Below are positions 24,073 through 24,587 of a DNA stretch of 64,000 nucleotides, piece after piece. Made by a program: the position numbers and the translations under genes. Source of the stretch: Octopus vulgaris (Eukaryota); NCBI GenBank assembly GCA_951406725.2, contig OX597818.1, positions 36,456,001 to 36,520,000 on the forward strand, given 5' to 3'. The notes below the pieces were generated by a model. That model was not told the DNA's origin and ran no database searches. It saw only the letters and a program-made list of their open reading frames with translations. Positions within the stretch are counted from its first letter, which is position 1; each line of letters opens with the position of its first letter.

Positions 24073-24146
<74 letters not shown>

Positions 24147-24183
24147 CTCCGTCTTCCCTTCTTTGGATCTTTCCTTTTCCTAT

Positions 24184-24218
24184 GTTTCTGACGAAGAGCT
24201 CCGCTCGAAACGTTGAGC
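24184..24218 (+). ncRNA. Minimal type I hammerhead ribozyme, intact core (family A)
   Basis: GTTT-CTGACGA-A-GAGC-TCC-GCTC-GAAA-CG-TT^-GAGC; palindromic AACGTT stem III. Confidence 0.75.
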
Positions 24219-24383
24219 CCTCCTTCTTTCCTTCTTTCCTGAGCGTCCAATAATACTATACTTGTTCCACGTCCTCGCGTTGTTGTGTTTACTCTTTGTG
24301 TTTTCCTGTTTTAGATTAACTATATATATATATGTAAATTTTTTTCCTCTGTCTTCCCTTCTCGGGATCTTTCCTTCTCCTTT

Positions 24384-24418
24384 GTTTCCGACGAAGAGTT
24401 CCGCTCGAAACGTTAAAC
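24384..24418 (+). ncRNA. Minimal type I hammerhead ribozyme, CCGACGA core variant (family A, second tandem unit)
   Basis: GTTT-CCGACGA-A-GAGT-TCC-GCTC-GAAA-CG-TT^-AAAC; perfect stem I GTTT/AAAC. Confidence 0.7.
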
Positions 24419-24511
24419 CCTCCTTCCCTTCTTTCCTGAGCGTCAAATAATACTTTAATTGTTCCACGTCCTCGCGTTGCTGTGTTTTTCTCTGTGTTTT
24501 CTTGTTTGGAT

Positions 24512-24587
<76 letters not shown>

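Follow-up and report, generated by a model that had tools for sequence, protein, structure and literature searches.

From the sequence comparisons, descriptor matches and public sequencing runs considered here, we regard three copies of a repeat of about 200-215 bp, each bearing a hammerhead motif, as likely terminal (pseudo-LTR) pieces of Penelope-like elements (PLEs) that sit in TA microsatellites of Octopus vulgaris, a reading to which we assign a probability of about 0.6. All three lie in one window, the whole stretch of 64,000 nucleotides that was analysed, two of them as a direct tandem pair and the third alone. The motif, the ends and the target fit a unit that likely works like a PLE terminal piece or a non-autonomous PLE, whose coding parent is not in the window; the tandem locus itself is most likely an inert insertion, in which the hammerhead is probably idle.

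Three copies in (TA)n tracts and their hammerhead motifs

The initial annotation had described two direct copies of a non-coding unit at 24144..24515, and these are confirmed both by alignment (87.5% identity over the 176 columns compared) and by TRF, which finds a period of 200 nt, 2.1 copies and 85% matches in 24120-24540 (Table 1). The (TA)n setting that it gave them stands for the flanks; the spacer is not pure TA, passing into GTAA and then a T run. The third copy, which had been placed at 2803-2980, does exist, with its start at about 2785 and its end at 2977; it shares 73-78% identity with the tandem copies. One dimer and this solo copy are all that the 64 kb contain, a profile search finding no other full copy. 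Pyrimidines make up 64-71% of the letters over all copies, and copy 2 has a 3-nt deletion 3' of its hammerhead. A coding role of the unit was ruled out, the longest ATG frame in the dimer being 23 aa and all copies being non-coding.

Table 1. Features of the tandem locus, the solo copy and the Hydra-clade PLE end, in window coordinates
Feature	Position	Strand	Description	Source or remark
Left flank	24078..24144	.	(TA)33, presumed insertion target	TRF
Copy 1	24145..24320	+	lacks the family's ~38-nt 5' extension; non-coding, 71% pyrimidine	
Hammerhead 1	24184..24218	+	minimal type I, intact core, predicted site after 24214	
Spacer	24321..24337	.	13 nt TA, then GTAA	
Copy 2	24338..24515	+	retains ~7 nt (A + T run) of the 5' extension	core alignment 24345-24515
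Hammerhead 2	24384..24418	+	minimal, U4C core (24389), predicted site after 24414	
Right flank	24516..24602	.	(TA)n, then (TG)n	TRF
Copy 3	2785..2977	+	solo, TA runs on both sides; 38-nt 5' extension = 2785-2822	
Hydra-clade PLE end	36170-37125	+	5'-truncated; GIY-YIG fragment, intact hammerhead, (TA)n end	

All three window copies are flanked by (TA)n, as are insertions of Hydra, Neptune and Naiad PLEs. The same 3' motif on (TA)n ends every one of them, and the 5' extension that they retain measures 0, about 7 and 38 nt in copies 1, 2 and 3; the three window copies, taken together with the contig consensus, give a fixed 3' end with variable 5' truncation. Since copy 1 lacks the extension and copy 2 keeps only about 7 nt of it, the tandem units are 5'-truncated and not unit-length. 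On the strand of the hammerhead, the optional 38-nt piece is upstream of the ribozyme, whereas the account of PMC3846280 has the PLE tail at a 3' end, a point against the PLE reading. A similarity search found no inverted copy near the locus, and a target-site duplication is unreadable inside (TA)n, both being optional PLE traits.

The truncation points of the two tandem copies differ by no more than about 7 nt, and for this a local duplication is an equally simple explanation. The repeat would then belong to the same PLE-derived family, and the dimer would have been formed by DNA duplication of one truncated copy, followed by drift. We consider this rather unlikely, as we do its presumed route, slippage or unequal exchange between the flanking TA tracts. 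The near-identical truncation points argue for it, the TA tracts on either side supply homology, and local amplification of PLE termini into tandems has been proposed (10.64898/2026.07.22.740005). Two other two-copy tandems, at 12136-12565 and 50119-50539 (230 and 209 bp), give no hammerhead match and indicate that duplications of such size do occur in the window. What speaks against duplication is that copy 2 has about 7 additional 5' bases and carries three family alleles absent from copy 1, the latter a weak test (P 0.03-0.17). A pyrimidine-rich minisatellite (32 bp, 69 copies, 90% matches) was also seen at 51113-53332.

Each tandem copy carries a minimal hammerhead, as had been claimed, the second with one core mismatch: a minimal-hammerhead descriptor counts 0, 1 and 2 core mismatches in copies 1, 2 and 3, the damage in copy 3 being C3A together with G in place of the cleavage-site base (position 17). 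The layout in both tandem copies runs from a stem I strand through a CUGANGA-type core, an extra A, stem II, GAAA and ACGU to a U. Hammerhead 1 has its extra A after position 9, a 4-bp stem II and a palindromic stem III, while in hammerhead 2 a G-U pair tops stem II and stem I is Watson-Crick. With GAAACGT beginning at 24207 and 24407, the last letters of the GUU triplets are 24214 and 24414; the two predicted cleavage sites have the positions, and the spacing of exactly 200 nt, that the initial annotation gave them. It also holds that stem III is the palindrome only in both tandem copies and that the two stem I versions, GTTT/GAGC and GTTT/AAAC, both pair, with 4 pairs each and 4 pairs in stem II.

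In 100 block-wise dinucleotide shuffles of the window, the chance rate was 0.00 and 0.01 matches per 64 kb; the hammerhead motif is far above chance. Rfam returned no hammerhead family for 24145-24516 even at E 10 (3 rows), nor is there a hammerhead among the 150 of 224 matches listed for the whole window; the miRNA and CRISPR rows were rejected as microsatellite artefacts. The motif call consequently rests on the descriptor and on the published definition of minimal hammerheads (min-HHRs). The canonical type I hammerhead, with its 6-bp helix I, is not matched, helix I having 4 bp here and stem III not extending past the palindrome; the min-HHR architecture, as described for metazoan PLE pseudo-LTRs in PMC4209133, is matched when descriptor and published description are compared. 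The present unit shares with those PLEs the core, the extra nucleotide between 9 and 10.1, G10.1-C11.1, the 4-bp helix I and the palindromic 15.2-16.2, and probably also mostly solo dispersed copies, with high sequence variation. It differs from them, as far as that description goes, in having U4C at 35-47% and no coding parent in the window, and its 4-bp stem II contrasts with the 7-8 bp of Schistosoma min-HHRs.

Further motifs were observed elsewhere in the window. A second hammerhead-bearing repeat occupies about 59110-59290 (-), after (TAA)n at a LINE 3' end; its hammerhead (core 59234) has an intact core, a 6-bp stem II and the same ACGU palindrome, with stem I broken in the present copy. 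At 28830-28870 (+) there is a degenerate hammerhead-like stretch (nhmmer E 0.42, 76% over 34 nt against the ribozyme region of the unit), and Rfam places a tRNA gene or tRNA-derived head at 34054-34126 (-) with 60.4 bits.

The dispersed family and its alleles

The stretch is present in 20 of the 24 listed runs (9 studies, 4 coded organisms); none of these runs is on record as RNA, and two, X7 and X15, are contigs only guessed to be RNA. Family data come from 4 of the 24 runs, aligned on 24138-24362 at 80% likeness, with 24312-24362 masked as repeat, which confines the counts to the part of the unit before its 3' end and the tandem junction. Contigs matching these 225 bases number 13,011 in X1, 3,948 in X7 and 129 in X15, from which we infer that the family is dispersed and numbers thousands of copies or more, depth not being equal to copy number; the range obtained from summed depth, about 2,000 to 400,000, is too wide to use. 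The initial annotation's view of a multi-copy family within the PLE/retrozyme spectrum, equipped with a minimal hammerhead of the dimer type, is borne out by the run contigs and the descriptor. Clashing with a high-copy family is the scarcity in the raw DNA run X22, where 1,934 million letters yielded 9 reads, of which 8 match by chance through a polypyrimidine stretch. Its species label is the same as that of a run rich in the family, and a human-DNA filter or a wrong label could explain the discrepancy. No match came from motif scans that covered metagenome, viral and prokaryotic contigs.

Loose ends before 24144 spell the extension of copy 3 in 146 contigs of X1, 59 of X7 and 4 of X15, and in 3 further X15 contigs TA is followed by only part of the 5' extension. 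These loose ends show 30 letters only, so that longer upstream sequence in other copies is possible; one X15 contig has 171 more bases upstream. The joints listed are four forward skips, each in single contigs, and one short back-step. Also in X15, two contigs diverge to different sequence after 24214, and a contig of 1,249 nt meets the unit at 24181, where stem I starts; these contigs may stem from a longer parent or from other families with the hammerhead in common.

In X1, 98% of the depth at 24215 and 95% at 24217 has A, the family base, and G at these positions is private to copy 1. Stem I is therefore normally Watson-Crick, and GAGC belongs to copy 1 alone; GAGC/AAAC as a case of covariation was ruled out, the private change being one-sided (G-U). 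In a local fold, GAGC permits a competing hairpin over the GAAA core, and the private stem I changes of copy 1 are modelled to favour an inactive fold.

The U4-to-C change reported for copy 2 is indeed there, and its reading as private decay of that copy was ruled out: it is a common, family-wide allele that accounts for 34.8% of depth in X1, 46.5% in X7 and 44.6% in X15. U4C is described as reducing activity in vitro yet supporting viroid infection (PMC3088659). The initial annotation had named a core no more conserved than the rest of the unit as a ground for refutation. Taken whole, the hammerhead region shows no lower variability than the remainder (variable sites 4/35 versus 15/110, Fisher P 1.0, four X22-only rows and two sites private to copy 1 being left out), while the other 10 of the 11 invariant core positions hold steady, with no listed variant at 5% or more. 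The variant table is not exhaustive, two sites at which copies 2 and 3 agree against copy 1 being unlisted.

The three family-level minor alleles that copy 2 carries and copy 1 does not are at 24177, 24189 and 24258. Sharing of three such alleles under random change has a P of about 0.03-0.17, and one of them could be CpG decay; they lend modest support to separate source copies for the two tandem units.

Predicted behaviour of the dimer

A double-hammerhead fold of the dimer is nested and geometrically possible, with strands swapped between the cores: core 1 would act on 24414 via stem I GUUU/AAAC, and the U4C core 2 on 24214 via GUUU/GAGC. This fold lies 26.4 kcal/mol above the ensemble (its halves 13.3 and 18.7), or 23.8 kcal/mol with the family-majority stem I; because the energy model has no tertiary terms and no active dimer was run as control, these energies rank the halves better than they predict activity. 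As the cut at 24214 needs the U4C core 2 together with the weaker of the two stem I versions, monomer release would be limited by the weaker ribozyme. The 200-nt circle reaches -21.5 kcal/mol with 47% of its bases paired (z -1.12, 200 shuffles) and is not, at this locus, the highly self-paired monomer circle that is a feature of retrozymes; the fold of copy 3 is no more stable than that of shuffled sequence (z -0.23). Little circular RNA is to be expected from the locus. In the sources consulted, min-HHR dimers are described as cleaving weakly in vitro (PMC4209133), and the Anolis PLE hammerhead as needing PLE protein and being dispensable for insertion in vitro (PMC11167929). The proposal that the unit is retrozyme-like and able to release a monomer or circle is unsupported here: the copies are truncated, the hammerhead is minimal, the circle folds weakly and one core has U4C.

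A true non-LTR retrozyme, whose tandem transcripts would be cut to units, circularised and re-inserted by a PLE enzyme, and of which the dimer would be either product or source, is in our estimate distinctly unlikely. The locus does resemble non-LTR retrozymes, as characterised in PMC7229834 and 10.64898/2026.07.22.740005, in being built of tandem non-coding units, each a few hundred bases long and furnished with a type I hammerhead, in its GC content below 50% and in its presumed PLE dependence; its 200-nt period and GC of 40% fall within the range given for tandems (150-450 bp, GC <50%; PMC7229834). The steadiness of ten of the eleven core positions, the fully Watson-Crick stem I of the family and the geometrically possible double-hammerhead pairing point in the same direction. 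Moreover, the case has recently been made that retrozymes derive from PLEs as non-autonomous elements (10.64898/2026.07.22.740005), which makes for a soft border between a retrozyme and a PLE piece. Several features nevertheless set the locus apart. The hammerhead is minimal and not canonical, and the units are truncated and not full-length. The second core is incomplete: two complete consecutive hammerheads, by which Li et al. recognise a retrozyme, are not found, since copy 2 carries U4C, an allele that reaches 35-47% of family depth. The monomer is poorly self-paired (z -1.1), the double-hammerhead fold stands 26 kcal/mol above the ensemble (24 with the family-majority stem I), and the hammerhead region varies as much as the rest of the unit. 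In the Xenopus precedent, only one of nine predicted dimers cleaved in vitro (10.64898/2026.07.22.740005). We find very doubtful a more elaborate scenario in which the locus would be a snapshot of retrozyme birth: repeated targeting of a single (TA)n tract would stack PLE hammerhead ends head-to-tail, TA would act as a TATA-like promoter, chance dimers would yield small, unstructured, pyrimidine-rich circles, and the family-wide U4C allele, as a slow core paired with normal ones, would tune cleavage.

Probable relation to PLEs and proposed origin of the copies

The window also holds a 5'-truncated Hydra-clade PLE end, in which endonuclease, hammerhead and (TA)n follow one another in that order; the unit matches it in the order of hammerhead and (TA)n. 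Its GIY-YIG fragment (Pfam E 0.005, below cut-off) yielded no longer relatives by word index, whereas a HMMER search did find them, with 40% identity to the C-terminus of the 806-aa protein P0002. This best long relative has RWR, DKT, YRDD and CxCX5C, which are described as marking the Hydra clade (PMC8557442). The hammerhead of this end has its core at 36907, its site after 36982, a 57-nt stem II region and an 8-nt palindromic stem III, and the distance from site to (TA)n end is 142 nt, against 106, 101 and 91 nt in the three copies. Unit and Hydra-clade end have no DNA similarity beyond 9-12-nt words. Given this lack of shared sequence, the end shows that PLEs with hammerheads and (TA)n targeting are in the genome, and does not show itself to be the parent of the unit.

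Hydra and Neptune clade PLEs, as described by Craig et al. 2021 (PMC8557442), share with the unit the (TA)n target, 5' truncation, partial tandems and a hammerhead near the 3' end; the unit differs in having no inverted copy and no sequence link to the Hydra-clade end of the window. An optional extension of 30-40 bp is given there as a PLE trait, together with partial tandems, 5' truncation and (TA)n bias.

The fixed 3' end on a simple repeat and the 5' truncation would also fit LINE retrotransposition, and LINE fragments are abundant in the window; on that view a microsatellite-targeting LINE would have mobilised the copies as a SINE-like repeat, and the hammerhead would be a passenger. This we find scarcely credible, for 24145-24516 has no tRNA or other Rfam head, there is no similarity to the LINE 3' ends of the window, and minimal hammerheads are, in the account of PMC4209133, a PLE trait. 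The long non-LTR retrotransposon fragments of the window lie at 38677-40047 (+), 41532-42465 (+) and 59646-61774 (-), the first with 98% identity to an unnamed database protein.

If the copies are PLE terminal pieces, as we prefer to read them, they were likely mobilised by an autonomous PLE through its reverse transcriptase and GIY-YIG endonuclease. The PLE protein would nick (TA)n and prime reverse transcription at the fixed 3' RNA end; reverse transcription would stop early at variable points, here presumably close to or at the T run with which the 5' extension closes. Two copies truncated in this way would have come to lie side by side, either by a partial-tandem insertion or because the same TA tract was hit twice, and their adjacency would account for the 200-nt spacing. 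The hammerhead would have been inherited from the parent pseudo-LTR, where it may act only as a dimer through the ACGU palindrome, probably with protein help. As source, either a full-length PLE, of which the unit would be the 3' end, or a short non-autonomous family may be considered. Against this reading stands that, within the window, none of the three copies adjoins a reverse transcriptase or endonuclease sequence, and that the unit has no similarity beyond short words to the Hydra-clade end.

PLEs fill 6.83% of the O. vulgaris assembly according to the supplement of PMC13282606, a repeat paper that, in the text consulted, does not mention ribozymes; a search of the openly accessible literature found no description of an octopus hammerhead. 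As it stands, the repeat adds a further abundant family to the PLE-type hammerhead elements, which are a known kind. If tandems prove common and circles real, it would illustrate the origin of retrozymes from PLE ends and would offer a natural case of polymorphism at the near-invariant core base U4.
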